Assembly (NCBI GenBank): GCA_943356775.1
Contig: CALRFU010000002.1
Location: forward strand, 1-46,523
Origin: Candidatus Nomurabacteria bacterium
GTDB lineage: Bacteria > Patescibacteriota > Minisyncoccia > Phycocordibacterales > UBA2100
Length of the DNA stretch: 46,523 nucleotides
Reading direction: 5' to 3'
The translations under genes and the position numbers were made by a program. This document shows, piece by piece, positions 5,042 through 23,384 of this stretch. Every line of letters begins with the position of its first letter. The first letter of the stretch is position 1. The notes under the pieces were generated by a model, which searched no databases, was not told the DNA's origin, and saw only the letters and a list, made by a program, of their open reading frames with translations.

Positions 5042-5299
5042 TTACTTCATGTGTGCCGAGACGAGCTTCGTCATCTCGAACATTGTGACTTCACCCTTGC
5101 CTCCGAAAAGGGCCTTCAGCTTGTCGTCCGCCAGGATGTTGCGCTTATTGGCAGGATTCTGGAGGTTGTTTGCCTTGATGTAGACCCAGATCTGCTTGAC
5201 CACCTGTCCGCGTGACATTGGACCCTTACCTACGACTGCCTCGAGTTCAGGAGTGAGGTTGAGGGGCTTTAATAATGCTGGATTTGCTGTTCGTACCAT
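5042..5299 (-). CDS. SWIB/MDM2 domain protein
   Basis: LKPLNLTPELEAVVG..PMSRGQVVKQIWVYIKANNLQNPANKRNILADDKLKALFGG..VTMFEM; start at MVRTAN. Confidence 0.92.
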   Translation of the reverse strand: MVRTANPALLKPLNLTPELEAVVGKGPMSRGQVVKQIWVYIKANNLQNPANKRNILADDKLKALFGGKGEVTMFEMTKLVSAHMK

Positions 5300-5375
5300 A
5301 ATGGCAATGTTATTTACTTGTATGGAGGGATTATAGCCCCTGGCAAGGTATACGCTAGGGCACCAGTGTATAACA

Positions 5376-5501
5376 CCGCACGCGAGTGTGCCCCGCTGAA
5401 AGTGGGGTCGAGAGTCGGCTGTAAGCCGATGCGAGAGCGTTATGCCCGCGCGTACTCGCGCGGGCATAACGCCACAGGCCGCCCAAGGGCGGCCTGTGGC
5501 G
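5376..5501 (+). repeat. Multi-hairpin intergenic element (related to 42739-42930)
   Basis: Successive hairpins with GCGA, GAA(A) and GTAA loops, a perfect 16-bp stem with TACT loop (5437-5472) and a 15-bp inverted repeat (5470-5501). Confidence 0.6.
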
Positions 5502-5517
5502 AAAAACAACTTTCAAA

Positions 5518-5742
5518 CTACATCGAGCTACAATTCCTGCAGATGCCCTTGTGATTCACGACCTCGTAGACCGCAGAGAGACCCACGAGTACGTACACGA
5601 GCGATTCCACCTGTGGCCAAGAGCCGAGAAGCATGGAAACAACGTTCAATTCGGCTCCCATGAATCCACCAAGGCCCACCAAAAGCCAGTTAAGGCCTCC
5701 TACGACGAGGAGTACCCAAGCGACCATGTGCACATTTTTCAT
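5518..5742 (-). CDS. DUF378 family small membrane protein
   Basis: LLVVGGLNWLLVGL...VYVLVGLSAVY. Confidence 0.88.
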   Translation of the reverse strand: MKNVHMVAWVLLVVGGLNWLLVGLGGFMGAELNVVSMLLGSWPQVESLVYVLVGLSAVYEVVNHKGICRNCSSM

Positions 5743-5889
5743 ATATATTGGAGAGAAGAGATTGACTAGTAAAGTCGACCCGTTAATAGCACCCAATCAG
5801 TATGAACTCTTTTATGAAGCGCGCCACTCAGTTATCCACTCGAATCGCTTCGCTCGCTCGTGGCAAGCCATTCCCATAATCAAGCTTTT

Positions 5890-6336
5890 TTAAGCCTCTT
5901 CCCGCTTTTTGAGCTCTGCCTCGTAAATTCGCTCGCGTAGGGCGGTCGTCGAAAAATTATGCCCGCGTGAATTGAAATACATCTCTATCGGCAATTTATG
6001 TCCGGTGTACTCTTTCCCCTCCCAATCAGCCCCAATAATCCTAATGTCGGGCTTGATGGTGACAAGGAGGTCGTATAAATCCTTTTCGCTGCTGTACACG
6101 ACGACCTCATCAATGTACCGGATGCCCTCGAGAATAATGCGACGTTCTTCGAGCGACATGATGGGCTTATTCTTCTTCTTGCCCCGGTAGTCACCCTCTG
6201 TCTGCGAAGGATCATCTTGCAATGCGACGATAAGATAACCGCAGACCCCCTTCGCCTCTTTGAAAACCAGCATGTGCCCGGCGTGACAGAGGTCGAACGC
6301 TCCGGCCGTAATTCCCACCTTCTTGCCGTCTTTCAT
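5890..6336 (-). CDS. Cytidylyltransferase family protein (TagD/RfaE2-like)
   Basis: GAFDLCHAGH (HIGH-type), YLIVAL..D, ER..IL..IRYIDEVV, STT.LR. Confidence 0.88.
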   Translation of the reverse strand: MKDGKKVGITAGAFDLCHAGHMLVFKEAKGVCGYLIVALQDDPSQTEGDYRGKKKNKPIMSLEERRIILEGIRYIDEVVVYSSEKDLYDLLVTIKPDIRIIGADWEGKEYTGHKLPIEMYFNSRGHNFSTTALRERIYEAELKKREEA

Positions 6337-6382
6337 GGCAGAAGAATACCATAGAATACAGTGCGTATGCTAGAATGGCGGC

Positions 6383-6961
6383 ATGAAAACTGCGTTACTT
6401 GCTTCATACGAAAAGGACGAGGCTCTGCGAAGGCTGGGGAAGCTCCTTATCGATAACGGCTGGACGCTCCTTGGCTCTGCCGGTACCGCAAAGCACCTTA
6501 TGGACAATTCAATCCCCTGCCGCGACGTGGCGAGCATCGTGGGACCGCCTATCTTGGGTCACCGCGTGGTCACGCTCGCGCGCGAGGTCTACGCAGGACT
6601 CCTCTCAGCCACACCGGAAGATGCGAAGGAGCTGCGACATCTAGGAATCGCGCCCATAGATCTTGTATACGTAACCCTCTATCCACTCGAAGCGACGATT
6701 TCCGATACGACGTCGACACCCGAAGACGTCATTGAGAAAACTGACATCGGAGGACCGACGCTTTTGCGCGCAGCCGCAAAGGGTCGACGCCTCGCGCTAT
6801 CCAATCCAGACCAAATCGACGCGCTTGAATCGTGGATAAAGAACGGTTCACCGGAAAGTGAGCGCGAAGCTTTCGTTACGTATCTTGCGGCGGCGGCTGA
6901 GCGCCGTGTCGCCGATTACGTCAATGCATCTGCAACGTATTGGGAAAGCAAAACGGCGTAA
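6383..6961 (+). CDS. Stand-alone IMP cyclohydrolase-like (PurH N-terminal MGS-like) domain protein
   Basis: SAGTAKHL, LGHRVVTL, IDLVYVTLYP, DIGGPTLLRAAAK; only 192 aa, with no AICAR transformylase domain. Confidence 0.85.
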   Translation: MKTALLASYEKDEALRRLGKLLIDNGWTLLGSAGTAKHLMDNSIPCRDVASIVGPPILGHRVVTLAREVYAGLLSATPEDAKELRHLGIAPIDLVYVTLYPLEATISDTTSTPEDVIEKTDIGGPTLLRAAAKGRRLALSNPDQIDALESWIKNGSPESEREAFVTYLAAAAERRVADYVNASATYWESKTA

Positions 6962-6965
6962 TTAC

Positions 6966-7694
6966 ATGCAAAAACACTTTTTCTTCGACCTCGATAATAC
7001 GCTCACTCCGAGCAAGTCGCTCATTGAAGCGGCGCACCTTCCGATACTGAAGCGGCTCGCTGAGCGTGCCGACGTCATCGTTGTATCCGGACACGGCGAA
7101 GCGGATATCCGGAGCCACCTGACGGAAGCCCTTCACGGGGCCTTCTACACGCTCGGGCAAAACGGAAACCGGGCAAACACTAAAGACGGTGATATTTTGT
7201 GGAATAACTCTCTCCAACAGGGGCAGCGGGATTCAATACTTGCTTTCATAGCGAAGGCGCGGGCTTTGCTTAATTACACTGTTCGTGATGAGAATGACAT
7301 TGTAGAAGACCGTGATTCCCAAATAGCCTTCTCGCTCATCGGACACCACGAAGACAAAGCCAAGAAGGATGCTTTCGACCCTCGGCACGAAATTCGTTTT
7401 AAGCTTCTGACAGACCTTGCCTCGGACGTTGAAGCTCTGAAAGTCGCGAATGTAGAAGTACGCATCGGCGGTACAACGAATCTTGATTTTTTCGAGTACG
7501 GAAAGAACAAGGGGTACAACGTCAACCTCTTCATTGAAAAAATGGGATGGGACAAGTTAGATTGTATCTACATCGGAGACGCCCTTTTCCCAGGCGGAAA
7601 CGATGAGACCGTAGTCGGGGTCATCGCCACACACGCGGTCAAAGACTATAAGGAAACATATTCGTATCTTTCAGATATTCTATTAAACTCCTAA
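6966..7694 (+). CDS. HAD-IIB family hydrolase / phosphomannomutase-like
   Basis: FFDLDNTL, EDRDSQIAF, GGTTNLD, NKG, YIGDALFPGGND. Confidence 0.85.
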   Translation: MQKHFFFDLDNTLTPSKSLIEAAHLPILKRLAERADVIVVSGHGEADIRSHLTEALHGAFYTLGQNGNRANTKDGDILWNNSLQQGQRDSILAFIAKARALLNYTVRDENDIVEDRDSQIAFSLIGHHEDKAKKDAFDPRHEIRFKLLTDLASDVEALKVANVEVRIGGTTNLDFFEYGKNKGYNVNLFIEKMGWDKLDCIYIGDALFPGGNDETVVGVIATHAVKDYKETYSYLSDILLNS

Positions 7695-9250: not shown

Positions 9251-10678
9251 CTAGTTCCCCCTTGCGATCTCGGCCGCGAGGCCGGTGTAGTTTTCAGGAC
9301 GTAACAGTTTAAGGCGCGCTTTTACTTCTTCGCCGACCAAAAGTCCGTCGATAAATTTCGCAAAATCTTCGAGTGTCACCTGCTTGCCTCGGGTTAGTGC
9401 CTTCAATTTTTCGTACGGTACTTCAACTCCTTCACGGCGCAAAACTGTTTGAATTGCTTCTGCAATGACTTCTGGATGTTCGTCGAGTGCTGATTGAAGA
9501 GCCGTTGTGTTCACACTGATTTTTCCAAGTCCTTTTATAAGCGAATTATATGCGATAAGAGAGTGTGCAAATGCTGTTCCAAACACCCGCTCGACGGTGG
9601 AGTCCGAAAGGTCGCGCTGCAAACGAGAGATTGGGAGCTTGTTTGAGAAGTGATTAAAGAGCGCGTTGGCGACACCCAGATTTCCTTCTGCATTTTCGAA
9701 ATCGATAGGATTCACTTTGTGCGGCATCGCCGATGAGCCGACTTCGCCCTCCTTCGGCTTTTGCGTCACCCAACCATCGCTAATGTAGCGCCACATGTCT
9801 TGCGAGAAGTCGATGAGAATGACGTTGATGCGTCGCAGATTATCGAACAATTCCGCGTATGTGTCGTGCGGCTCGATTTGTGTCGTCGTATCATTCAAGG
9901 CAAGCGAAACCCGTAGGTTAAACCTACTATTGACATCTGTATTCTCTGTGTTAAATCCATCAACGAATTTCTTACTGAATTGTATCCAGTCTACCTCCGG
10001 CGCAGCGGCCACATGTGCGTTCCAATTTCCAGTGGCGCCTCCAAATTTCACCAGAATGACCGATTTCGCGAGGCTCGCAAATTGTCGTGCAATCCGCTGT
10101 TCAAACACACGAATCTCTTTGCCAAACGTAGTCGGTGAAGCGGATTGTCCGTGCGTGCGTGCAAGCATTGGTGTTGTCGCATATTCGTTCGCCATGCCGT
10201 TCAACGTCGACTGAATCTCTTCAAGCGAAGGAATCACTATCATCTCAATCGCATTCCCCAACATCGCAGCGTACGCAAGACTGTTGATATCTTCTGAGGT
10301 AAGAGCGAAGTGTATCCACTCGTTCACATCGGCAAGTGACGTACCTGCCAATTTCATTTTCAAAAAGTATTCAACGGCTTTGACGTCGTGATTCGTGGCT
10401 AGAATCTTTTCGTACCCCTCGCGTTCGATTTTTTTAATAATCTCGGCATCATCCACAGAGAAATCGACTGCAGCGGCTCGCAACATATCTTTTTCGTCGG
10501 CGGTGAGCACGCGAACGCCAACGCCATTCGTTTCCGAAAGTGCGATGATGTACTCGCACTCGACACGAACGCGCGCGCGAATCAGACCATATTCAGAAAG
10601 ATACGGCGCAAGCGATTCAGCTACCGACCGGTAGCGACCGTCTATTGAACTTACTGCGGTGAGAGGTTCAAGCGGCAT
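9251..10678 (-). CDS. purB: Adenylosuccinate lyase
   Basis: TNHDVKAVEY, LARTHGQ, GSSAMPHKVNPIDFENAEGN, SRLQRDLSDST. Confidence 0.97.
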   Translation of the reverse strand: MPLEPLTAVSSIDGRYRSVAESLAPYLSEYGLIRARVRVECEYIIALSETNGVGVRVLTADEKDMLRAAAVDFSVDDAEIIKKIEREGYEKILATNHDVKAVEYFLKMKLAGTSLADVNEWIHFALTSEDINSLAYAAMLGNAIEMIVIPSLEEIQSTLNGMANEYATTPMLARTHGQSASPTTFGKEIRVFEQRIARQFASLAKSVILVKFGGATGNWNAHVAAAPEVDWIQFSKKFVDGFNTENTDVNSRFNLRVSLALNDTTTQIEPHDTYAELFDNLRRINVILIDFSQDMWRYISDGWVTQKPKEGEVGSSAMPHKVNPIDFENAEGNLGVANALFNHFSNKLPISRLQRDLSDSTVERVFGTAFAHSLIAYNSLIKGLGKISVNTTALQSALDEHPEVIAEAIQTVLRREGVEVPYEKLKALTRGKQVTLEDFAKFIDGLLVGEEVKARLKLLRPENYTGLAAEIARGN

Positions 10679-11606
10679 ATTCTTTTAGATTGCGTTCCAT
10701 GCGCGGGATGACGGGTAATTCCCCGGGGACGAATGTCTCCCCCGTAATCTGTTCATACATCTGAATATAGCGGCGTGAGAGCTCTTCTACAAGCTCAGGT
10801 GGTGCGTCAGGAAGTGTCGCGTCTTTGTACGGGTCGCAGTTCTCCTTAAACCACAGCCGCAAGAATTCTTTGTCGAAACTCTTCGGCTCGGTACCGTTTT
10901 CCAAACTCGCTTCGTAGCCTTCCATTTGCCAGTAGCGCGAAGAATCGGGAGTGTGAATCTCATCGATGAGTACCAGCTCGCCGTTTTCATCGGTTCCGAA
11001 TTCGTACTTGGTATCGACGAGTATCAGCCCTTGGCGTGCTGCGATATCCTGACCTCGTAAGAAGAGCTTGGTCGCAGTGTCTTTGACCTTGGCGAGAAGT
11101 TTGGCAGTGATGAGTCCCTCTTCGATCATCTGGTCCGTTGAAATAGCGCGGTCGTGCGTATCTTCCTTTGTTGTCGGGTCAAAGACCGGCTGCGGAAGCT
11201 TGGTATTTTTCTTCAGTCCATCGGGGAGCGTGAGGTCGCCAAAGGTGCGCATACCACCTGAGTATCGCGTCCAAATAGCCGTATCCGTGACGCCGGTGAG
11301 ATACCCACGCATTACCGCTTCAACGGGCACCACCTTCATTTTCTTGCCCACAGTCACATTGGGGTCCGGTACCGCGAGTACATGATTCGGCACGATATCC
11401 TTCGTAGCCTCAAACCACCACGCACTTATCTCATTGAGTACCTGCCCCTTCCACGGGATATGCGCAATGACGCGGTCAAAAGATGAATGGCGGTCGGTCG
11501 TAATCAATACGAGACGGTCCGGCTGTATGTATATGTCGCGCACCTTGCCGGTTTTCTTCTCACCTATAAAATCAAAATTCGTTTCGCGAAGGACTTCCAT
11601 ATTCAT
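10668..11606 (-). CDS. purC: SAICAR synthetase
   Basis: GKVRDIY, TDRHSSFD, LVDTKYEFG, DEIHTPDSSRYW, DKEFLR. Confidence 0.96.
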   Translation of the reverse strand: MNMEVLRETNFDFIGEKKTGKVRDIYIQPDRLVLITTDRHSSFDRVIAHIPWKGQVLNEISAWWFEATKDIVPNHVLAVPDPNVTVGKKMKVVPVEAVMRGYLTGVTDTAIWTRYSGGMRTFGDLTLPDGLKKNTKLPQPVFDPTTKEDTHDRAISTDQMIEEGLITAKLLAKVKDTATKLFLRGQDIAARQGLILVDTKYEFGTDENGELVLIDEIHTPDSSRYWQMEGYEASLENGTEPKSFDKEFLRLWFKENCDPYKDATLPDAPPELVEELSRRYIQMYEQITGETFVPGELPVIPRMERNLKEYAA

Positions 11607-11611
11607 ATATT

Positions 11612-12655
11612 CTATTTCCAATTAAGCTCGCCGGTAAATTTGACCGTCTTACTCCCTTCCGTGATAACCCCCACCTCATACGCCTCGACTCCCTGTGATT
11701 TTATATGAGCCATCGCCTCTTCAGCGAATTCTTTCCGAACGACCGCGGTAATACCAACACCCATGTTGAATGTCCGCATCATGTCAGCGTCTTCAAGATT
11801 GCCGAATTTCTTCAAAGTCTGGAATATCGGGAGAATTCTTACCTGCGAGAGGTCGACGTTGGCGCTGAGAGCTTCCGGCAATATGCGATTGAGATTTTCT
11901 CCGATGCCGCCGCCCGTTATGTGTGCAAGCCCTACCAGTCCGTCATTCTCAAAAAGATCTTTCAGGCAGTTGTAGTAGGCACGATGCGGAGTGAGTACGG
12001 CGGTGATGAACGGCATGCCCCCCACTTCTTCTGCAAGAATCTCCGGAGCAGCTTCCATAATCTTGCGGACGAGGGAAAGTCCGTTGGTATGCACCCCGCT
12101 TGAGGAAAGTGCGATGACGACGTCACCGTCCTGGATTTTTGAGCCGTCGATGATGCGATCTTTCTCTACGACGCCGGTGATGCTTGCGGTGAGGATGTAG
12201 GTTCCCGGTGCGACGACGCCAGGCTGTTCCGAAGTCTCACCACCGGTCAATACGCAGGCATTATCTTTGCATGCTTCGGAAAGTGAGGACACGATTTTCA
12301 AAATGACATCTTTTTCGAGCTTCCCGCACACGATGCAATCCTGTACAGAGAGCGGCTTCGCCCCCATCACAATGGCGTCATTCACGAGGTGATTGATGAG
12401 GTCTTGGCATATAGTCTCAATACTCCCGTGCTCAAAAGCGAGTTTCTGTTTGCTCCCGGGTTCTTCAGTCTTGAATACAAGAACGGGGTGCTTGTATTCG
12501 GGGAAAGCCCCGTCGAAGAGCGACGCGAAAGCGCCGACTTTGTTGAGAACGCGTACGTTGGCGCTCTCCAATATTCCCGCCATCTGGCGTTTCGTGTCGT
12601 TGGCGGTATCAATATCTACTCCCGATGTTTTGTAAGATAATTTTTTATCTGTCAT
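11612..12655 (-). CDS. purM: Phosphoribosylformylglycinamidine cyclo-ligase (AIR synthetase)
   Basis: [44 protein letters not shown]. Confidence 0.95.
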
Positions 12656-13185
12656 ATCAATCCCTGCTCCTCGAGGTATTTTTTGAAGCCTTTTTCTTGC
12701 AGACTATCGTCTTTGGCGACGATGTCCCCCGCCATCTTTTCTTTGTACGCAACGATTTTAGCGCGTACGCCCATATCCCCTGCGCCGATTATTTGCGCGG
12801 CGAGAATTCCCGCATTTTTCGCGCTGCCGATGCCCACCGTCGCAACAGGAATGCCCGGCGGCATCTGCACGGTGGAAAAGAGCGAGTCCACCCCTGCAGC
12901 TCCCATTTTGGCCGCCATCATCGGGACTCCTATCACCGGAAGCGCGGTATGCGCCGCAACGACTCCCGCCAAATGTGCGGCGCCTCCGGCGCCGCAGATA
13001 AAGACTTTGTAACCATCCGCTTCGCTCTTTTGTATGTATTCAACGACTACTTCCGGTGTGCGGTGCGCCGAGAGTGTATGCACTTCATATCCGATGCCAA
13101 ATTCCTCCAACACCTTTGCCGCCTCCTGCATGACCGGCAAGTCCGAATCAGAACCCATAAGAATTCCTACGAGTGGTTTGTTCAT
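12652..13185 (-). CDS. purE: N5-CAIR mutase (class I PurE)
   Basis: [39 protein letters not shown]. Confidence 0.97.
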
Positions 13186-13952
13186 ATGAAGTAGTTTACC
13201 GCATTTTTAAAGATTTGAAGCCCGGGGCCTTCTGTTGGCAATTCTTTACCACCGCGTACGTATTCCTCCCGGAGATTCGTCCAGTGCGGTAGCTGCGTGA
13301 AGCGCACCGCACGCTCGGGATGCGGCATGAGCCCTAAGACGCGGCCGTTGTGTGAAGTGACTCCCGCGATATTTTCGAGTGAGCCGTTGGGATTCGCGGC
13401 CATGCTGAAATGCTTTGCAGTCTCACCTTCCACATACTTGAGCGCGATCTGACTCGCCTTACTTAGTAAAGCGAGTTGGGATGGTGGTGCGTAGTATTTA
13501 CCTTCCCCATGCGCGATCGGCACCGACAGGGTCTTGATGTCCTTGAGCCACGGGCTCTCGCCTGTCACCTCAAGGTCGACCCAGCGGCACGAGAAGCGGC
13601 CGGAATCATTGGTAAGAAGCGCGCCATCTACGAGTCCCGCATTGGTGAGTATTTGGAATCCATTGCAGATGCCTATCATAAGGGTGTCACGCTTGAGGAA
13701 TTCCTCGATTGCAGCGCCGAGATGCTGTTTGAGCCGATTGCCATACGCCTTGCCCGAGCCGGTGTCGTCACCGTAAGAAAACCCACCGGGCATGACGAGT
13801 ATTTGTGCCTTCTGCAAAAGCGAAGGCTTTGCGATGAGGTCGTTGATGTGCACGATGTCAGCTGTGGCTCCGACGGACTCAAACGCGGACTTGGTCTCGT
13901 CTTCGGTGTTGAGACCGTATCCGGAAAATATAATGACGTGTGGTTTTTTCAT
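13182..13952 (-). CDS. purQ: FGAM synthase glutaminase subunit
   Basis: PGGFSYGD, GICNGFQIL, AHGEG, NPNGS, GLMPHPER. Confidence 0.96.
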   Translation of the reverse strand: MKKPHVIIFSGYGLNTEDETKSAFESVGATADIVHINDLIAKPSLLQKAQILVMPGGFSYGDDTGSGKAYGNRLKQHLGAAIEEFLKRDTLMIGICNGFQILTNAGLVDGALLTNDSGRFSCRWVDLEVTGESPWLKDIKTLSVPIAHGEGKYYAPPSQLALLSKASQIALKYVEGETAKHFSMAANPNGSLENIAGVTSHNGRVLGLMPHPERAVRFTQLPHWTNLREEYVRGGKELPTEGPGLQIFKNAVNYFI

Positions 13953-13976
13953 ATTATTTATAGTGAGCATGTCGAA

Positions 13977-16892
13977 CTACCAATGTTTAAAGAACGACCG
14001 GTAACTTTCGGTCAACGTTGAGAGCGGAAGTTCGACCGCGGCTTCCGGTAGTTTTATAGAGAGTGACGCTGCCTGGACGACTTCACCGATATTCGCGAAC
14101 GCTACGCCTTTCATGGCTTTCTCAAATTCCTTCTGCGAAGTACGGGCAACGGATAGAAGGAGTCGTCCTTGGCTTTCTGAGAACATCACCGCTTCATCGC
14201 TCTTGGCGTTGCCCGGCAGTTTCGCAAGATTGAGTTGTGCGCCGAGTTGCCCTGCGACTGCAGACTTCGCGAGTGCAATGCCGAGCCCCCCGCGACCGAC
14301 GCCGACAGCAGAAACGACGAGACCTTTTTGTATCGCTTTAGATAACGCATCATACGTCTTTGCGTTCTTTTTTACATCAACAACGGGTACCGTACCTGCG
14401 CCACCGTATTCGGATGCACCGAGTTCGTCATTGGTGTCGCCGATTACATACACGAGGTCGCCCACGCGCTTGAAATCTATTGTCATGGTTTTTGATACGT
14501 CGGGAATCACGCCGATTGCGGACACGAGAAGTGTCGGAAGTGCCGCGATATGAGTAGGCTTGCCGTCAGCCGTATATCCGCGGAAATCGTTGAACATCGA
14601 GTCTTTTCCGGAAATGAAAGGCGTGCCGTATGCGGTCGCTATGTCGTAACAGGCTTTCGCCGCTTGTTTTAATTCATACAAACGCTCCGGCTTCTCGGAA
14701 GACGACCAGCAGAAGTTGTCGAGAATAGCGAGATAGTCGCGCGAAGCTCCCGCCGCGATAGCGTTGCGAACTGCCGTATCAATGGCAGCGGCCGCCATCG
14801 CGTATGTATCAATCTGCGAATACCAAGGTGTATACCCGTGCGAAAGCACAACGCCTTTTGTAGAATCGAAAACTGGTTTAATGACCCCCGCATCTGCATT
14901 CACGCGACCCTTGCCTTGGAGCGGCTTCGTGACTGATGTGCCCTGCACTTCGTGGTCGTATTGCTGCGACACAAACGAGATAGAGCCGAGATTTGGCCCC
15001 GAGAGCATCCGGAGAATTGCTTGGGCGGGTTCTTCCGGAGAGATTTTCTCTTGCAGGACTACGCGTTTCGGCTCGGCACTTTTTTGCTGCTCAACAGGAC
15101 GTCCATCGTGCAGAAAATCAAGAGAAATATCGGAAATAATCCTTCCTGTATGGCGGATAATGACACGCTCGGATTTGGTGAACTCCCCGATACGCGTTGC
15201 TTCCACATCGTGCCGGTCACAAATCTTTTTGAACGCTGCCCACTTTGCCTTCGGCACTGCGAGTGTCATACGCTCTTGTGATTCAGAAAGCCATATTTGC
15301 CAAGGAGCGAGGCCGGGGTACTTAAGCGGGATTTTCTCAAGATCAACGACGGCTCCGCCGCTCTCACCCGCCATCTCGCCTACTGAGCCTGAGAGGCCTC
15401 CTGCTCCGTCGTCGGTAATGCTGGAATAGAGACCTTTATCGCGGGCTTCGCGAATGAGAACATCCGAAAGTTTCTTCTGTGTGATCGGGTCTCCGATTTG
15501 AACGGCTGTCGCAGGAGAGCCTGAAGAGAGTGATTCCGATGAGAATGTGGCGCCGTGAATGCCGTCCAGTCCGACGCGACCGCCGAGCATCACAATGTAA
15601 TCGCCTGGTTTTGCCTTTTTCTCGTAGAGCTTACGACCTTTGTTTTTGCGCGGGATAAGACCTACCGTCCCGCCGAAGACCAGCGGCTTTCCGCGATAAC
15701 TGGGGTCTACCGCGATAAATCCGAGCGGAGTCGGGATACCGCTCTGATTGCCCCCGGCATTGATGCCGCGAATAACGCCTTCGAGAATGCGACGTGCCGG
15801 TAAGAGCGGCTGCGTCTTTGCCTGGTCGCGGAAGAGTTCGGTCTTGTCGTTCGGGTCGGCGACGAAAAATCCGTACACATTCGCAATCGGCTTTGCACCA
15901 AGTCCGAATCCGAGACAATCGCGATTCACCCCCACGATCGCCGTCACCGAACCGCCAAATGGATCGAGTCCTGATGGAGAATTATGCGTCTCGACTTTGT
16001 GCGTAATCAAATATTTCTCATCGAATGCAATGGCGCCAGAATTGTCTTTAAATACGGAAACGCAAAAATCTTTTTTGCCTTTTGCTTTGCGTATTCTTTC
16101 TGTTGCACCCTTGATGTAGCGGTTATAAATCCCCTCTTTCACCTCGTCGAGCGGGTCGGCGAATATCGTGTGCTTACAGTGTTCCGACCATGCTTGCGCA
16201 AGCGCCTCAAGCTCGATATCCGTCGGGTTCCTTTTTTGTTTCTTGAAATAATCACGTATCACTTCGAGCTGCTTCAGCGAGAGAGCAAGCGGACCACGCC
16301 GTGTACCTTCGGCATTTTTGATGCCTTCTTTGCCGATGCGGGACAATTCGGCATCATCCACATCGAGACTGACTTCGTCGACAGAGGTGTGTTCGTGAAG
16401 TTCGACGCGCGGAACGATAACTTTGAAATCAGAACCGGCGGGATAGACACTTGCGCGCTCGATGAGCGGATTATGCAATTCGCGCGCCATTGCGTGCGCT
16501 TCCTCTTGCGAAAGACTGCCCGAGAGAAAAAGGAAGTACGACGAGTACACTTCTCCCTCCCCAAGACTCCGCCCGAGACAATCCTCAATCGTTTCCCGCG
16601 CCGTGCGTCCCACATTATCGGTAACTCCCGGAAGGCACCCGATTTCAAGTGCGTACGAGAAATTGCCCGGTGTGGGGATTTTGCCTGTCGAGGATACTTC
16701 CGTAACGGGGTGCGTGAGCCGCTCGGCGACGCGTCTGAGCTCATCGGGAGTCAAATCTGCATCGACCGTATACGCCTGAACGTAAGAAGCGCCTTCTAGG
16801 GCGCTTTGGGGAAACAGAGCTTTCAGACTGCGGAGGAGGCTTTCGGCGCGCGCGTCCTCAACTTTCGAAGAGACGGCTATCCGATGTGTCAT
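13977..16892 (-). CDS. purL: FGAM synthase subunit PurL with an N-terminal PurS-like extension
   Basis: QAWSEHCKH, KVETHNSPS, DGIHGATFSS, VQIGDP, SESQERM, ISGKDS; 971 aa. Confidence 0.96.
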   Translation of the reverse strand: MTHRIAVSSKVEDARAESLLRSLKALFPQSALEGASYVQAYTVDADLTPDELRRVAERLTHPVTEVSSTGKIPTPGNFSYALEIGCLPGVTDNVGRTARETIEDCLGRSLGEGEVYSSYFLFLSGSLSQEEAHAMARELHNPLIERASVYPAGSDFKVIVPRVELHEHTSVDEVSLDVDDAELSRIGKEGIKNAEGTRRGPLALSLKQLEVIRDYFKKQKRNPTDIELEALAQAWSEHCKHTIFADPLDEVKEGIYNRYIKGATERIRKAKGKKDFCVSVFKDNSGAIAFDEKYLITHKVETHNSPSGLDPFGGSVTAIVGVNRDCLGFGLGAKPIANVYGFFVADPNDKTELFRDQAKTQPLLPARRILEGVIRGINAGGNQSGIPTPLGFIAVDPSYRGKPLVFGGTVGLIPRKNKGRKLYEKKAKPGDYIVMLGGRVGLDGIHGATFSSESLSSGSPATAVQIGDPITQKKLSDVLIREARDKGLYSSITDDGAGGLSGSVGEMAGESGGAVVDLEKIPLKYPGLAPWQIWLSESQERMTLAVPKAKWAAFKKICDRHDVEATRIGEFTKSERVIIRHTGRIISDISLDFLHDGRPVEQQKSAEPKRVVLQEKISPEEPAQAILRMLSGPNLGSISFVSQQYDHEVQGTSVTKPLQGKGRVNADAGVIKPVFDSTKGVVLSHGYTPWYSQIDTYAMAAAAIDTAVRNAIAAGASRDYLAILDNFCWSSSEKPERLYELKQAAKACYDIATAYGTPFISGKDSMFNDFRGYTADGKPTHIAALPTLLVSAIGVIPDVSKTMTIDFKRVGDLVYVIGDTNDELGASEYGGAGTVPVVDVKKNAKTYDALSKAIQKGLVVSAVGVGRGGLGIALAKSAVAGQLGAQLNLAKLPGNAKSDEAVMFSESQGRLLLSVARTSQKEFEKAMKGVAFANIGEVVQAASLSIKLPEAAVELPLSTLTESYRSFFKHW

Positions 16893-18115: not shown

Positions 18116-18844
18116 GTGAAAACTGATACGAACGTGGTCCCATCGGGAACCGGTACCGAAACGCGTCCACTCACCCCCCCGACAGCCGAGGAAGCCTTCG
18201 CGGAGGCGTGGCAAGGTCTCGAGAGGCTAGACCAAAGCTTGACACCGGAACGGAAATTCCGCGTCGTCCTCTTTGGGAGTGCTCGCGTGCCCGAAGATGA
18301 CCCGGTCTATGGCGACTGCTACCAACTCGGCAAGGCCATCGGCCAACATCGGATCGGCGGCGTTACGGGAGGAGGCCCCAGCCTCATGACTGCATTCAAC
18401 AAAGGCATCGTCGAAGGGTGGGCTGGGCAACCGGAGGCCTACAGTCACGGCGTCTGCATCAAGCAGATCAATCGCGATGAAGCTCCGAATGTTTTCCTCC
18501 GGCAGGCCTATTACCATCGCCTGATTCTCACGAGACTGCACCAATTCGTGAGGCTCGGGCACTGGGGAGCAATCATTCTGGCTGAGAAAGGTGGGTATGG
18601 CAGTGACCTCGAAAAGGCGCTGATACACCAGCTCCTTCAATTTAGACAGATGGACGTTCCGCTGATCGCCATCGGTCCGATGTGGAAAGCACGCAAAGCA
18701 TGGGAAAAAGCCTGGATTATCGACCAAAACTTGGCCGAACCCCACGATCTCGACTACATGCAGTGCGTTCCCAAAGCGATGGACGCGCTGCCAATCATTC
18801 TTGAAGCGCATGCGCGCTACAAGGCAAAGAAGGCCGCGGGTTGA
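18116..18844 (+). CDS. LOG family nucleotide monophosphate nucleosidase-like protein
   Basis: VVLFGSAR, TGGGPSLM.A.N.G, GGYGS..E (variant of PGGxGTxxE). Confidence 0.8.
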   Translation: MKTDTNVVPSGTGTETRPLTPPTAEEAFAEAWQGLERLDQSLTPERKFRVVLFGSARVPEDDPVYGDCYQLGKAIGQHRIGGVTGGGPSLMTAFNKGIVEGWAGQPEAYSHGVCIKQINRDEAPNVFLRQAYYHRLILTRLHQFVRLGHWGAIILAEKGGYGSDLEKALIHQLLQFRQMDVPLIAIGPMWKARKAWEKAWIIDQNLAEPHDLDYMQCVPKAMDALPIILEAHARYKAKKAAG

Positions 18845-18863: not shown

Positions 18864-18904
18864 GGAACCCTCTGCTGCGGTGCGGCAGGGGGGTCCATCT
18901 TTTT
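18864..18904 (+). terminator. Terminator of the LOG gene
   Basis: ACCCTCTGCTGC-GGT-GCGGCAGGGGGGT stem then T-tract. Confidence 0.6.
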
Positions 18905-19406
18905 ATACCCGCTCCAAATCAACCCACGAATATTTCAATCCGTTCCATTCGCGCTTTTCTTCAAATACTTTTTTTGTGAAGGTATCGGCGTACGGCGGGA
19001 AAAAAGAATCCGCTTCTTTTTCGTTGTCGATGAGCGTGATGTAGAGTTTTTCGATATACGGGAGCGCTTGCTTGTAGATTTGCGCGCCGCCGCCGATGTA
19101 TACCTCTTGGTCGTCGAATTCTCTCCCCTTCGCAATCGCCTCTTCAAGCGAAGAAGCGACAACGACGCCCTCGTAACTCCACTCCGCATCACGGGTGACC
19201 ACGATGTTGGTACGTCCTGCGAGGGGCTTACCGTGGGTGTAGCCGAGAATAGATTCAAATGTCTTGCGCCCCATGATGATGGGGTGTCCGAGCGTTAATT
19301 CTTTGAAGCGCTTGAGGTCATCGGGAATATACCAGAGAAGCTTCTCGCCATATCCTAGCTCTCGATTCTTCCCGATAGCGACCACCGCGCAGATACGGCC
19401 CGCCAT
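18903..19406 (-). CDS. folA: Dihydrofolate reductase
   Basis: LLWYIPDDLKRFKELT.GHPIIMGRKTFESI, PLAGRTNIVVTR, IGGGAQIY, ADSFFP. Confidence 0.97.
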   Translation of the reverse strand: MAGRICAVVAIGKNRELGYGEKLLWYIPDDLKRFKELTLGHPIIMGRKTFESILGYTHGKPLAGRTNIVVTRDAEWSYEGVVVASSLEEAIAKGREFDDQEVYIGGGAQIYKQALPYIEKLYITLIDNEKEADSFFPPYADTFTKKVFEEKREWNGLKYSWVDLERV

Positions 19407-19407
19407 A

Positions 19408-20043
19408 TTATTCAAGTGCCGAGAAATCCTTTTTCAATTTTTTGAGGTCGCCATTAAATACGAGTTTCATCTCGGCCGCCCTCTCTTTCTTACCCTTCTC
19501 CACTACATCCTTCTGATGCCAGCGGGATTTACGTGGTTCGACTTTATGTTTGAGCTCTTCGAAGACAATCTGACAGAAGCGTTCGCCGGGATGGAGTTGG
19601 ATGGTTTGCGAGTTCGTGTTGTTGCGGATAGGAAGTGTGAGCGGTCCTTCGTAGCCGGAATCGATGATACCCGTGAGGTCAACAGAAAGTCCTTTGCGAT
19701 TGACGGATGAACGCGGATATAAAACGGCCATTAAATCATTCGGTACTTTGATTGTTTCGAATGTAGAGACGAGCACATATTCTTGCGGCAAAAGCTCGAA
19801 GCACTGACCTTGTTCGAGCTCGATGACATCAAAGTATTCGGGCCCATGATCTTTTAGAGGGTCGAGACTGAGGGCCTGTCTCCCCTTCGATGTCATCTTC
19901 CAGGCCTTTGGAATAAGAAAGGTGAACCCGAGGCGAAGGTCGACCGCATGCATCTGTAATTGAAATTTGTCGAGTCCCGGGTTGAACTCAATATTGCCGG
20001 ATTTAACCCGCTCAAGAATCTCGTCTTTGGTGAGGATTGCCAT
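19408..20043 (-). CDS. dcd: Dcd/dUTPase trimeric-fold protein lacking the deaminase Glu (candidate dCTP pyrophosphatase)
   Basis: VDLRLG, PRSSVNRKGL, GIIDSGYEG, GERFCQ; LTLPIRN in place of ITLExxN. Confidence 0.85.
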   Translation of the reverse strand: MAILTKDEILERVKSGNIEFNPGLDKFQLQMHAVDLRLGFTFLIPKAWKMTSKGRQALSLDPLKDHGPEYFDVIELEQGQCFELLPQEYVLVSTFETIKVPNDLMAVLYPRSSVNRKGLSVDLTGIIDSGYEGPLTLPIRNNTNSQTIQLHPGERFCQIVFEELKHKVEPRKSRWHQKDVVEKGKKERAAEMKLVFNGDLKKLKKDFSALE

Positions 20044-20055
20044 AGGTCGTACAGT

Positions 20056-20892
20056 CTACAACACGATTTGCATCCCCGTAATGGCAGGCGACGGATTGTA
20101 TTGGGCCGCGATAGGCGCGACTATTTCATCCACCAATTTCCTGTCTTTCTTCTCTGAGCGGTCAAAAACATTTTTCGGGAGGACCACATGAATTGGCTTG
20201 TGATCATTGGTTCGCTTCACCATCTCACGCGCGACATCGTACTGATTGTCCCAAACATGCGCATTGGATATTGAATGTGAATACACGCCGGACTCGACAC
20301 CGAGCTTCTGCGCCAAGATTATTTGCAAGAGAGCGAATCCGGCGACGTCTGACGGGAATCCCAAGACCATGTCATTAGAGCGCACCATGTTGTGAAGATG
20401 TAATTTACCTCCGATGATGTTGACGGTAAATGTATACGGGCACGGCACATTCGCTTTCTTCGTACCGCCGAGTCCATCCCCCGCCGGATCCCACGTGACG
20501 ACGACGCCATGACGTGAGCTTGGATCTTCTTTCAAAAGCTTCACGAGAAGTCCGAGTTGGTCGCGCCCAAAGTGTTTGCGCCACCGGTAGCCGTAGGCGA
20601 CCGTTACGACTCCGCCGGGGTTTGTGAAGCTGTCCCAGATTTTTGTGTAGTCACCCAAGAAATCGGCGGGCTTGCGAAGACCTGCAATAAACCAGACTTG
20701 CTCCGCGACAAACATCTTGACGGGGATTTTGCGGAGCGTCAGCAACGGAAAACCATCCTTACCCACGTCGTGGGAGAAATGGAGTCCCGGCACAGCTATG
20801 GTTGCGTGTCCGTTGCGCTCACTCTTTTGCTCTATCCCCTCACTGAGAATTCGCTTCAGCAAGCCTTGATACATTTCGTCGAAGCGGGTCAT
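20056..20892 (-). CDS. thyA: Thymidylate synthase (ThyA) family protein with Asn->Asp specificity substitution (candidate dCMP C5-methyltransferase)
   Basis: GFPLLT.RK, AYGYRWR, DQL, PSSR, catalytic PC, RSNDMVLGFPSDVAGF, NAHVW. Confidence 0.9.
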   Translation of the reverse strand: MTRFDEMYQGLLKRILSEGIEQKSERNGHATIAVPGLHFSHDVGKDGFPLLTLRKIPVKMFVAEQVWFIAGLRKPADFLGDYTKIWDSFTNPGGVVTVAYGYRWRKHFGRDQLGLLVKLLKEDPSSRHGVVVTWDPAGDGLGGTKKANVPCPYTFTVNIIGGKLHLHNMVRSNDMVLGFPSDVAGFALLQIILAQKLGVESGVYSHSISNAHVWDNQYDVAREMVKRTNDHKPIHVVLPKNVFDRSEKKDRKLVDEIVAPIAAQYNPSPAITGMQIVL

Positions 20893-20946
20893 TCGGGCAT
20901 TGTACGCCACGAACTTAGCACCGCAAATTGTGCTAAAGTTGCGTTC

Positions 20947-21444
20947 ATGTCGGATATTACCTATCCCTATCTCCCCTCCGGTCGCACGATTCTATACGTT
21001 CCTGAGAGCGATGCGTTTATACAAGAAGCGCGTGCATATGCCAAAGAACATTCGCTGGACGATACCGTTCAAACCGGCTCGGTCATTGTGAAAGACGGCG
21101 AGATTATCGGCCGCGGTGCAAACGGTACCGACTACCATAAAACACACGAATGCGAACGCGTGAAGCGTGGTATTCCAACCGGCCAACACTACGAACTCTG
21201 CGAGGGCTGTCATCCCAATAATCACAGCGAACCGCGTGCAATTGCCGATGCGCTCAAAAATGGCCACAAAACCCTCGGCACCGACCTCTATCTCTGGGGC
21301 CATTGGTGGTGCTGCGAGCCATGCTGGAATGCAATCATCAAAGCCGGCATCGAGAATGTGTACTTACTCAAAGACAGCGAGAAACTTTTCAACAAAGCGC
21401 ACCCCAACAACACCGTCAGCAAGCAATTTGCCGATGTAGAATGA
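20947..21444 (+). CDS. dCMP deaminase family (Zn-dependent CDA fold) protein
   Basis: GSVIVKDGEIIGRG.NG, C.R...IPTG..YELC, HSE, CEPC; start MSDITY. Confidence 0.88.
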   Translation: MSDITYPYLPSGRTILYVPESDAFIQEARAYAKEHSLDDTVQTGSVIVKDGEIIGRGANGTDYHKTHECERVKRGIPTGQHYELCEGCHPNNHSEPRAIADALKNGHKTLGTDLYLWGHWWCCEPCWNAIIKAGIENVYLLKDSEKLFNKAHPNNTVSKQFADVE

Positions 21445-21447
21445 AGT

Positions 21448-22059
21448 ATGCGCGGGAAATTCATCGTTTTTGAAGGCGGCGACGGCTCGGGCAAAACGAC
21501 TATTGTCGAGCGCCTGAAGAAAGAATTCCCTGACTTTATATTCACACAAGACCCCGGCGGCACCACATTCGGCGAGCACGTACGCGCGCTCCTTATGTCA
21601 GAAGATACAAAAAACATCGACGTGCGGGCAGAGCTCCTTCTTTTTCTCGCTTCGCGTGCTCAATTGATTTCTGAAGTAATACGGCCCGCACTTGAGAGCG
21701 GAAAGAATGTGATTTCCAACCGCTTTGCACTCTCCTCTATCGCCTATCAGCTATATGGTCGGGAGCGTCCAGAATTATTGCAGCTCTATAAGTCGGTTTC
21801 CGACGTCCTCCTCGATGGCGTACTGCCAGACGCGACAATTCTTCTCGACGTCAGCCCCGAAGTCGGTATCGCGCGAGTACACTCGCGCCCCGAAGAACCT
21901 ACTCGTTTCGACCTCGAGGCAATCGCCTTTCATGAGCGGGTACGGGATGGCTACAAAAAGCATATCGCCGAGTTCGGAACGCCCTTCATCATCGACGCAA
22001 ACAAGCCGCTTGAAGAGGTGTGGCAAAAAATCCAAGAGGCAGTACAATCGGCGCTATAA
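21448..22059 (+). CDS. tmk: Thymidylate kinase
   Basis: FIVFEGGDGSGKTT, DPGGT, ELLLFLASRAQ, NRFALSSIAYQ, IDAN. Confidence 0.96.
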   Translation: MRGKFIVFEGGDGSGKTTIVERLKKEFPDFIFTQDPGGTTFGEHVRALLMSEDTKNIDVRAELLLFLASRAQLISEVIRPALESGKNVISNRFALSSIAYQLYGRERPELLQLYKSVSDVLLDGVLPDATILLDVSPEVGIARVHSRPEEPTRFDLEAIAFHERVRDGYKKHIAEFGTPFIIDANKPLEEVWQKIQEAVQSAL

Positions 22060-22115: not shown

Positions 22116-23384
22116 ATGAATGATTACGAGCACATCAAAAAACAAGACCCGGAAATATTCGCCTCCCTTGAGGGCGAAGAGCATCGCGAGGCAGAAGGAC
22201 TGGAATTGATACCGTCAGAAAACTACGTCTCGATGGCGGTGCGCGAGGCCAATGGTTCGTGCCTCACCAACAAATATTCCGAAGGCTATCCTGGCAAGCG
22301 TTACTACGGCGGGCAGACCTACACGGATATGGTAGAAACGCTCGCAATCGAACGTGCGAAGAAACTTTTTAATTGTGGGTACGCCAACGTGCAGACCTTG
22401 GGTGGTGCGAATGCGAATATTGCGATGTACTTCGCGCTTCTGCAACCAGGTGACACCGTGCTCGGTATGGACCTTTCACACGGCGGACATCTTACCCATG
22501 GACACCCAGTCACGTACCTCACCAAGATATTCAACTTCGTACGCTATAAGATGAAGGATCCGAACACAGGAGAAATTGATTACGATGAGATGTTGAGGGT
22601 TGCAAAAGAGAGCAAGCCTAAGATTGTGCTTGCAGGCTTCTCCGCATATCCCCGCGAGCTCAACTATGCAAAATTCGTTGAGATAGCGCGCGAGGTCGGC
22701 GCCTATGCAGTGATGGATATCGCACACATCGCTGGCCTTATCGCAGGCAAGGCGGTCAAGAGCCCTTTTGATTTTGGATTCGACGTGATGACCTCAACCA
22801 CTCACAAGACGCTCCGCGGTCCACGCGGAGGTCTTATCCTCACACGCGATAACGAGGAGATTGCCAAGAAAATAGACAAGATGGTCTTCCCCGGCCTTCA
22901 AGGCGGACCGCATATGAACAACATCGCCGCTAAGGCCGTCGCCTTCGATGAAGCGCTGCAACCCGCATTTCAGACCTACGCCGTGCAAATTCTTAAGAAC
23001 GCAAAAGCTATGGAAAAAATATTCTTGGACAACGGTGTCCGCCTGCTTACCAGCGGGACCAGCAATCACCTGCTCCTTGCCGACGTATTCGGCAGCCTCG
23101 GCATTACCGGCCAAGAGGCGGAGACATTGCTGGACCAAGCGGGAATCACACTCAACAAAAATTCGATTGCGGACGATACGCGCAAACCGATGGACCCATC
23201 CGGTATTCGCTTTGGTACACCCGCGATAACCACGCGCAAATTTACAGAAAAGGAAAGTGCGCAGGTCGCGCAATTGATGGTGGATGTGATGAAAAACAAG
23301 AGCGACGAAAAGAAGCTCGCCGCCATCCGAGAAGAAATCCGTACGCTGTGCAAGAAGTTCCCTATCCCCGAGTCGTTCGTATAA
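22116..23384 (+). CDS. glyA: Serine hydroxymethyltransferase
   Basis: LIPSENY, NKYSEGYPGKRYYGG, GGHLTHG, TTHKTLRGPRGG, FPGLQGGP. Confidence 0.98.
   Translation: MNDYEHIKKQDPEIFASLEGEEHREAEGLELIPSENYVSMAVREANGSCLTNKYSEGYPGKRYYGGQTYTDMVETLAIERAKKLFNCGYANVQTLGGANANIAMYFALLQPGDTVLGMDLSHGGHLTHGHPVTYLTKIFNFVRYKMKDPNTGEIDYDEMLRVAKESKPKIVLAGFSAYPRELNYAKFVEIAREVGAYAVMDIAHIAGLIAGKAVKSPFDFGFDVMTSTTHKTLRGPRGGLILTRDNEEIAKKIDKMVFPGLQGGPHMNNIAAKAVAFDEALQPAFQTYAVQILKNAKAMEKIFLDNGVRLLTSGTSNHLLLADVFGSLGITGQEAETLLDQAGITLNKNSIADDTRKPMDPSGIRFGTPAITTRKFTEKESAQVAQLMVDVMKNKSDEKKLAAIREEIRTLCKKFPIPESFV

Follow-up and report, generated by a model that had tools for sequence, protein, structure and literature searches.

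Does the thymidylate synthase (TS) homologue encoded on the minus strand at positions 20056 to 20892 of a 46,523-nucleotide stretch of Candidatus Nomurabacteria DNA (contig CALRFU010000002.1; the whole stretch is called the window below) make thymidylate from deoxyuridine monophosphate (dUMP), or does it methylate deoxycytidine monophosphate (dCMP)? The question is raised by an Asp in the column of E. coli Asn177, the pyrimidine-specificity residue, and we refer to the protein as TS-D. Annotation sources label its relatives plainly as 'thymidylate synthase'. Judging from sequence and from analogy with known enzymes, we put a probability of roughly 55% on a housekeeping thymidylate route in which TS-D would methylate dCMP to 5-methyl-dCMP, which would then be deaminated to thymidine monophosphate (dTMP).

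Active-site residues of TS-D

TS-D was aligned with solved thymidylate synthases using HMMER, and with the TS of Xanthomonas phage Xp12, gp42 of phage T4 and canonical ThyA using MAFFT. Both alignments set RSNDMVLGFPSDVAGF against RSADIFLGVPFNIASY, and the Asp of TS-D therefore falls in the Asn177 column. An earlier reading of this DNA from its letters alone (the sequence-only reading) had placed the Asp there, and the codons that it named for the Asp (GAC) and the catalytic Cys (TGC) are exactly those in Table 1. Relative to canonical ThyA (E. coli numbering), TS-D carries W82F, R127H, L143N, H147P, Q165V, N177D and Y209W. The changes from PCH to PCP and from QRS to VRS, both noticed in the sequence-only reading, are present in the alignments; the changes from SRR to SRH (R127), from WdeW to WdsF (W82) and of L143 to Asn go beyond it. 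The change from HxY to HVW, also noticed there, is present in TS-D but is no family trait, since Trp209 occurs only in the host and its closest relative, 2 of 10 genus sequences, the other 8 having Tyr.

TS-D has the full set of methyl-transfer residues (E58, Y94, C146, R166, S167, D169 and H207), and the C-terminal tail is retained, with the protein terminus ..MQIVL aligning to the canonical tail. Asp177 is present in all 10 genus orthologues and in all 18 of the more distantly related Patescibacteria homologues that were examined. Judged by sequence conservation, it is no chance variant.

According to PMC8670742, no positions single out the TS homologues of cytosine-modified phage contigs better than 177 and 147, and the mutagenesis cited there, from Asn to Asp at 177 in TS and in the reverse direction in T4 dCMP hydroxymethylase, switches the dUMP/dCMP preference. 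An acidic 143 is given in PMC13326640 as the hallmark of hydroxymethylases (T4, MilA), and D169N as that of 5-hydroxy-dCMP synthases. In a dUMP-specific ThyA (EC 2.1.1.45), Asn177 pairs with O4 and N3 of uracil, with support from His147 and Gln165, where TS-D has Asp, Pro and Val. The combination of Asp177 with a residue other than His at 147, characteristic of the Xp12-type dCMP methyltransferase (EC 2.1.1.54), is found in TS-D (Asp and Pro). Linked genes for dihydrofolate reductase (DHFR) and a deaminase-family protein, as Xp12 has them, are likewise found at the TS-D locus, and are kept in relatives. Hydroxymethylases of the T4 type (EC 2.1.2.8) and MilA have Asp or Glu at 143 together with Asp177, where TS-D has Asn, and 5-hydroxy-dCMP synthases of the RB69 gp48 type carry D169N, where TS-D keeps Asp. 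The non-acidic residue at 143, Asp169, the C-terminal tail and the DHFR of the operon thus point to a methyl product rather than a hydroxymethyl or hydroxy product, and the DHFR linkage implies production of dihydrofolate (DHF). Reductive methylation had been favoured in the sequence-only reading on the strength of the linked DHFR, and it receives indirect support from Asn143 and from a DHFR in the same operon, as in Xp12.

The open reading frame (ORF) of TS-D spans 20056..20910, with an alternative GTG start at 20910; the ATG at 20892 yields a protein of 278 amino acids (aa). This is the length of 90 among 120 listed relatives, and 20056-20892 is therefore likely to be the gene. The 278-aa form is a ThyA homologue, as had been claimed: the Pfam model PF00303 (Thymidylat_synt) matches it with an E value of 3.2e-48 (164.6 bits). 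Among eight NCBIfam TS equivalog models, TIGR03284 (thymidylate synthase) scores TS-D at 118.3, over its cut-off of 108.35, and the remaining seven score it far under their cut-offs. An AlphaFold2 model built with 96 sequences as input was very confident, with a mean predicted local distance difference test (pLDDT) score of 96.2. Its best solved-structure matches were bona fide thymidylate synthases, with a template modelling (TM) score of 0.87 to E. coli TS (target-normalised). This search of the PDB confirms the TS fold for the modelled TS-D and is without power to separate substrates.

The TS-D subfamily and its phage relatives

A HMMER scan of 1.84 billion representatives was run with TS-D, and the best 150 matches were sorted by signature. 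Pro147 was combined with Asp177 in 96 of these 150, and another residue at 147 with Asp177 in 26. Asn177 was found in 22, all of them low-ranked. The nearest representatives, about 120, were nearly all of the type with Asp177 and without His147. The top match among 50,697 phage records was the 'thymidylate synthase' of Xp12 (34% identity, E 3e-43), followed by relatives of Xp12; a separate comparison of TS-D with the Xp12 TS gave 34% identity and an E value of 9e-54. The resemblance to dCMP-modifying TS homologues that the sequence-only reading had seen is thus borne out indirectly, by the best phage match and by the signature that the nearest representatives share.

On a FastTree phylogeny of 177 rows, the Asp or Asn state at position 177 required 3 changes, compared to a mean of 39.5 for shuffled states. 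Asn143 was present in 123 of the 133 rows with Asp177. The TS-D proteins of Patescibacteria formed a 43-tip clade that contained neither Xp12 nor gp42 nor any canonical ThyA, although FastTree local supports are weak evidence; gp42 was a very long branch. The phylogenetic comparison with phage enzymes that had been proposed thus sets the cellular proteins apart. Recent capture from a phage is not supported, given identities to phage TS of 38% or less, a best E value of 1e-7 for a phage deaminase, and the separate Patescibacteria clade. Two natural fusions were found on the tree: P0144, within the Patescibacteria TS-D clade, joins a deaminase to TS-D, and P0160, in the Xp12 clade, joins a MazG-like pyrophosphatase to TS-D.

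All cytosine in the DNA of Xp12 is replaced by 5-methylcytosine (5mC). Thymidine nucleotides in Xp12-infected cells reportedly arise via a 5-methyl-deoxycytidine (5-methyl-dC, 5mdC) intermediate, as Kuo is said to have described in 1982 under a title beginning 'A new thymidylate biosynthesis...', and a 5-methyl-deoxycytidine triphosphate (5-methyl-dCTP) deaminase of Xp12 was reportedly described by Wang & Ehrlich in 1982. The hypothesis of such an intermediate has been taken up again in 10.1101/2024.12.05.627091. In that preprint, Xp12 TS served as the positive control for 5mdC synthesis, and 5 of 7 other TS homologues with Asp177, encoded beside deaminases, made 5mdC. On modified contigs, 104 of 149 deaminases had a TS nearby, compared to 17 of 277 where the contigs were unmodified; 5mC was favoured by 34 of the 56 deaminases that were active (10.1101/2024.12.05.627091).

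Host genome and gene module

The host is a freshwater Patescibacteria bacterium with a genome of 811 kb in 14 contigs, 98% complete. A profile search of the contigs found a single PF00303 match in this genome, which is TS-D. ThyX (PF02511) and thymidine kinase (PF00265) were searched for in the same 98% complete genome, and neither was found. The sole dUTPase-superfamily gene of the genome is the Dcd-like neighbour of TS-D. On the minus strand, TS-D is followed by this Dcd-like gene (13 nt downstream) and by DHFR; on the plus strand, divergently oriented, come a deaminase-family gene, thymidylate kinase (Tmk) and serine hydroxymethyltransferase (SHMT). The coordinates of all features are collected in Table 1.

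Table 1. Features of the TS-D module; positions are those of the window, residues of TS-D follow E. coli numbering
Feature	Position	Strand	Evidence or remark
DHFR (FolA)	18903..19415	(-)	PF00186, E 2.7e-45; overlaps end of Dcd-like gene; TS-D operon
Dcd-like protein, 211 aa, predicted non-deaminating (d)NTP pyrophosphatase	19408..20043	(-)	PF22769, E 2.7e-34; TIGR02274, 114 bits
TS-D, ThyA fold, Asp at Asn177 position, predicted dCMP C5-methyltransferase	20056..20892	(-)	PF00303
Asp at Asn177 column, pyrimidine-specificity residue, GAC	20347..20349	(-)	Alignments and codon check
Asp169, kept	20371-20373	(-)	Codon check
Val at Gln165 column, GTG	20383..20385	(-)	Also hydrophobic in Xp12 (Leu) and T4 gp42 (Met)
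N-V-P-C-P stretch	20437..20451	(-)	Identical N-V-P-C-P in Xp12 TS
Pro at H147 column	20437-20439	(-)	Alignment and codon
Catalytic Cys146, TGC	20440-20442	(-)	Alignment and codon
Asn at L143 column	20449-20451	(-)	Alignment and codon
Divergent intergenic region between TS-D and deaminase, 54 bp	20893..20946	.	Sequence
Divergent dCMP/cytidine-deaminase-family protein, 165 aa, predicted 5-methyl-dC nucleotide deaminase	20947..21444	(+)	PF00383, E 1.8e-13
Zinc motif HSE	21223-21231	(+)	Deaminase-family protein
Zinc motif C-x-x-C (CEPC)	21313-21324	(+)	Deaminase-family protein
Tmk	21448..22059	(+)	PF02223, E 2.9e-41; starts 4 nt past deaminase stop
SHMT, regenerates methylene-tetrahydrofolate	22116..23384	(+)	PF00464, E 3.9e-145

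The window also encodes purL, purM, purB, hisS and lepA, and the module therefore lies on the chromosome and not in a prophage. A prophage origin was rejected on the basis of these flanking genes and of synteny across the genus. The flanks, free of phage genes, agree with the cellular housekeeping context described in the sequence-only reading. The window annotation contains no glycosyltransferase or other tailoring gene near TS-D.

The de novo purine genes purB, purM and purL (971 aa) lie at 9251-16892 of the window, in an 811-kb genome of the candidate phyla radiation; genomes of this radiation are often without de novo purine biosynthesis. At 18116-18844 (+), flanked by an ATP-grasp gene and by the DHFR end of the module, lies a gene whose 242-aa product matches the LOG/SLOG family weakly (E about 0.002). 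This protein may be nucleotide-related.

The deaminase-family and Dcd-like neighbours

The deaminase neighbour has both zinc-binding motifs of PF00383, H-x-E and C-x-x-C. Around them it is unusual: the canonical PCxxC context is replaced by GHWWCC.PCW, and GANG takes the place of G(Y/W)N(A/G). The latter is the allosteric-site motif of DCTD-type dCMP deaminases (PMC12088426). In the window protein, GANG aligns to GYNG of the S. mutans enzyme and thus departs from the DCTD-type motif; the aromatic residue is also missing from most TS-D-linked deaminase orthologues. The window deaminase belongs to a clade with motifs of its own (GHWW.C..CW and GANG), and its match to solved dCMP deaminases is weak (E 2e-4). 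The deaminase gene directly precedes Tmk, and a dTMP product therefore fits. The last step toward dTMP is thus probably carried out by the product of this neighbouring gene, a point that the sequence-only reading had not made.

The Dcd-like protein scores above the cut-offs for PF22769 and for TIGR02274 (deoxycytidine triphosphate (dCTP) deaminase), and R-S-S-x-x-R and G-x-I-D-x-G are conserved in it. In the alignment with solved Dcds, its LTLPIRNN stands opposite ITLELSN, such that the family-conserved Glu is replaced by Pro (codon 19630-19632); the sequence-only reading had not remarked on this loss. In E. coli Dcd, this Glu of the T-L-E motif is reportedly the catalytic residue, E138 (Johansson 2005). 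A C-terminal extension is common to the Glu-less Dcd-like proteins; it comprises the last 40 residues, ends in G-[DN]-[IL]-K-K-L-K-K and is missing from the aligned true Dcds and viral homologues annotated as dUTPase. Identification as an 'archaeal-type dUTPase lacking Glu' was rejected, as the dUTPase-annotated proteins of the archaeal viruses STSV1, SRV and HCTV-1 keep the Glu. On these residues, the Dcd-like protein most likely no longer deaminates dCTP. It is probably a pyrophosphatase that supplies dCMP from dCTP, removes deoxyuridine triphosphate (dUTP), or does both.

Distribution in the genus and the phylum

A sample of 25 genomes of the genus, the host included, was searched for the module. 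TS-D was found in 10 of them (71-100% identity), and the same 10 genomes carry the Glu-less Dcd-like gene (81-100%) and an orthologue of the deaminase (51-100%). Canonical ThyA (with Q-R-S...P-F-N-I-A-S-Y and C-H) was found in 13 of the 25, and none of these 13 showed the deaminase orthologue; the dUTPase-superfamily genes aligned from among them all encode true Dcds that keep the Glu. No TS match was found in the remaining 2 of the 25. The two TS versions occupy one locus in the genus, between DHFR and Tmk-SHMT. Across the species genomes of the genus, TS-D is present in 37 of 116.

In an evenly drawn sample of 400 Patescibacteria genomes, TS-D was found in 18, from several families, with 41-66% identity. 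All 18 proteins have Asp177, a residue other than His at 147, and the C-terminal tail. At E<=1e-30, the deaminase was found in 11 of the 18 TS-D genomes vs 1 of 382 others (G512); at E<=1e-10, the counts were 15 of 18 vs 2 of 382. The Dcd-like protein was found at E<=1e-45 in 13 of 18 vs 1 of 382 (G295). One weak match in the Dcd-like search came from the unpublished genome G285, on which nothing here relies. As kin are not independent, these counts describe a pattern rather than test it. The 14 strong Dcd-like proteins of the phylum sample are all without the Glu (13 with Pro, 1 with Ser), and the next 15 matches all have it. TS-D is the sole TS, and ThyX was not found, in G344, G404, G157, G353, G278 and G151. 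Among these, the G344 genome consists of one contig and reaches 100% completeness on marker genes; its deaminase, Dcd-like gene and DHFR form a single operon near TS-D. Gene order differs among lineages, and the gene set is retained.

Other TS types and fusions were seen alongside. Many canonical-looking ThyA proteins of the genus have D-A-H-N or R-K-S at the R126/R127 columns in place of S-R-R, which holds the usual phosphate-binding pair, with Asn177 and Cys-His kept. A third type of TS homologue is found in three relatives of the same order (L025, L029 and L031), with C-H-G-W after the Cys, P-x-N-[LM]-[IV]-Q-Y and S-Y-G-A-A-F-H-D-F-P. In G499, a 786-aa ORF (5182-7542 of G499:C1:196000-205500) with a Tmk domain and two ThyX (Thy1) domains lies directly downstream of the deaminase, and a second, separate Tmk is present in the TS-D cluster.

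Proposed route and alternative explanations

In the route that we favour, TS-D would be a folate-dependent dCMP C5-methyltransferase that uses ordinary TS chemistry, with attack of the Cys at C6, methylene transfer and hydride transfer to yield DHF. The cytosine ring would be held by Asp in place of Asn177, and methylene-tetrahydrofolate would be consumed in converting dCMP to 5-methyl-dCMP and DHF. The divergently transcribed deaminase-family protein would convert 5-methyl-dCMP to dTMP, which Tmk would phosphorylate, and the DHFR and SHMT of the cluster would recycle the folate. The Glu-less Dcd-like protein would supply dCMP from dCTP, remove dUTP, or both. As a whole, the module would give the cell its sole means of making thymidylate de novo, bypassing dUMP. 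The substrate assignments, the order of the steps and deamination at the monophosphate rather than the triphosphate level are each proposed from sequence features and by analogy.

Several observations weigh against this route. The gene setting is in every respect that of an ordinary thymidylate cycle, and a canonical route of the Gram-positive type would be just as complete with dCMP deaminase, a dUTPase-like protein, ThyA and DHFR. The window deaminase matches the Xp12 deaminase at E 0.011, which rules out transfer of function by homology from that enzyme, and the best phage deaminase at E 1e-7; with phage similarity this weak, a preference for 5-methyl substrates is a guess. The deaminase domain of P0144 is canonical (GYNG, PCxxC), unlike the window type. 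The phage deaminase mSCD-B5, the single enzyme of this kind to have been characterised, acts on 5mdC triphosphate (5mdCTP), not on 5mdC monophosphate (5mdCMP), and needs triphosphates or single-stranded DNA (10.1101/2024.12.05.627091). Dcd-like proteins of archaeal viruses that are annotated as dUTPase retain the Glu; its loss therefore speaks only against deamination, not for any particular activity. The distribution also has its exceptions. The TS-D cluster of G499 includes the Tmk-ThyX-ThyX fusion, so a genome with TS-D may also have an alternative to it. In G404 and G215, TS-D is present and the window query gives no deaminase match; the one PF00383 match of G404 lies elsewhere in its genome. 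G295 has a Glu-less Dcd-like gene beside a canonical-type deaminase and no PF00303 or ThyX match. G512 has a window-type deaminase and no PF00303 match, with a weak ThyX match under the cut-off.

The same genes can be read in ordinary terms: TS-D would methylate dUMP, its Asp being a lineage-specific, compensated variant, the deaminase would convert dCMP to dUMP, and the Dcd-like protein would be a dUTPase that converts dUTP to dUMP. The housekeeping context is indeed identical to that of canonical ThyA, down to the shared locus in genus-mates. TS-D is the sole TS of the genome, keeps all methyl-transfer residues and the tail, and exceeds the TIGR03284 cut-off (118.3 against 108.35). Moreover, bacteria commonly differ in having either Dcd or a dCMP deaminase plus a dUTPase, and such a swap would account for the co-replacement without new chemistry. 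We nevertheless consider an ordinary TS unlikely. We know of no natural Asp177 enzyme that uses dUMP, although no search aimed at one was made. Four pocket positions (143, 147, 165 and 177) have shifted jointly toward Xp12, Asp177 characterises a deep clade (3 changes over 177 rows), the other seven NCBIfam equivalog models score TS-D far under their cut-offs, and the Asn/Asp mutations cited in PMC8670742 switch dUMP/dCMP preference.

If TS-D does methylate dCMP, its product might instead be handled as in Xp12, an explanation that is not exclusive of the route via 5-methyl-dCMP deamination. 5-Methyl-dCMP would be raised to 5-methyl-dCTP and enter the chromosome, replacing cytosine partly or fully, thymidine triphosphate would come from a deaminated fraction of 5-methyl-dCTP, and the Dcd-like protein would lower dCTP. 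The Xp12 operon of TS, deaminase and DHFR is an exact phage precedent, the pyrophosphatase gene beside TS-D parallels T4 gp56 and the PRA-PH/MazG-type genes of Xp12-like phages, a 5-methyl-dCTP deaminase was reportedly described for Xp12, and mSCD-B5 needs triphosphates (10.1101/2024.12.05.627091). On the other hand, no dedicated kinase for modified deoxynucleoside monophosphates was seen in the cluster, Tmk being the kinase linked there; the position of the deaminase immediately ahead of Tmk suits dTMP as its product; and all DNA-binding machinery of the cell would have to tolerate 5mC. We regard this handling as improbable. The more specific proposal that the cells keep a 5-methyl-dCTP pool, incorporate 5mC at replication partly or fully, and obtain thymidine nucleotides only by 5-methyl-dC deamination is a long shot; if true, no earlier example would exist of cells that substitute a base at replication and make no thymidylate from dUMP. 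A hydroxymethylase or hydroxylase like T4 gp42 or RB69 gp48, whose product of 5-hydroxymethyl- or 5-hydroxy-dCMP would serve a modified base, would share Asp177 with TS-D. It is very improbable given Asn143 where Asp or Glu would be needed, Asp169 kept and not Asn, an identity of 24% to gp42, which is without the C-terminal tail, a DHFR linkage that implies DHF, and no tailoring gene nearby.

Novelty and significance

Cells have two known routes to thymidylate, via ThyA or ThyX, both from dUMP. If methylation of dCMP followed by deamination is indeed the route here, it would add a third order of steps, in a sizeable set of Patescibacteria; phage-infected cells have hitherto been the one known case of methylation before deamination. 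Phage Xp12 already provides both the chemistry and the set of three genes. The apparent novelty lies in a housekeeping version that belongs to a cell, is inherited vertically and has other partner proteins. A full-text literature search, which included PMC12455944, found no description of a cellular Asp-type TS. The Asn/Asp switch would, if the route is correct, have been exploited in cellular evolution, and the names 'thymidylate synthase' and 'dCTP deaminase' on genes of the module would be wrong. It would also raise the question of limited dUMP/dUTP pools, or of 5mC in the DNA, of TS-D cells, and would make cellular 5-methyl-dC deaminases and dCMP methylases available as new subjects for enzyme study.

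Comparison with known systems

The closest known system is the Xp12 module (MT664984.1 44377-46195), with a TS homologue, a dCMP-deaminase homologue and DHFR. The TS-D module has the linked deaminase-family gene and DHFR in common with it, and TS-D itself shares N-V-P-C-P, Asp177 and a hydrophobic residue at 165 with the Xp12 TS. Unlike the phage version, the TS-D module is chromosomal, contains the sole TS of the cell, and is inherited across many Patescibacteria families. Its deaminase is of another lineage, its pyrophosphatase partner is of the Dcd family rather than a MazG/HAD enzyme, His or Gln stands at the R127 column, and Tmk and SHMT are linked.

T4 gp42 shares the TS fold, the catalytic Cys, Asp in the 177 column and a hydrophobic residue at 165 with TS-D. 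It differs (24% identity) in having Asp143, no C-terminal tail and no DHF among its products, where TS-D has Asn143, the tail and a linked DHFR. With canonical, E. coli-type ThyA, TS-D shares the fold, the chemistry residues, the neighbourhood of DHFR, Tmk and SHMT, and a housekeeping role. In contrast to the genus-mates with canonical ThyA and true Dcd, its partner Dcd is without the Glu and a deaminase-family gene is added.

The partner proteins can be placed in the same way. The PF00383 deaminase of the window is encoded beside a TS homologue with Asp177, as are the phage 5mC-selective 'dCMP deaminases' (mSCD-B5 and relatives). The likeness is one of gene context, and whereas mSCD-B5 acts on triphosphates or single-stranded DNA, the operon with Tmk in the window suggests a monophosphate substrate. 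The Dcd-like neighbour resembles the family of dCTP deaminases and bifunctional Dcd-dUTPases in matching PF22769 and TIGR02274, and differs from it in that the Glu of T-L-E is Pro.

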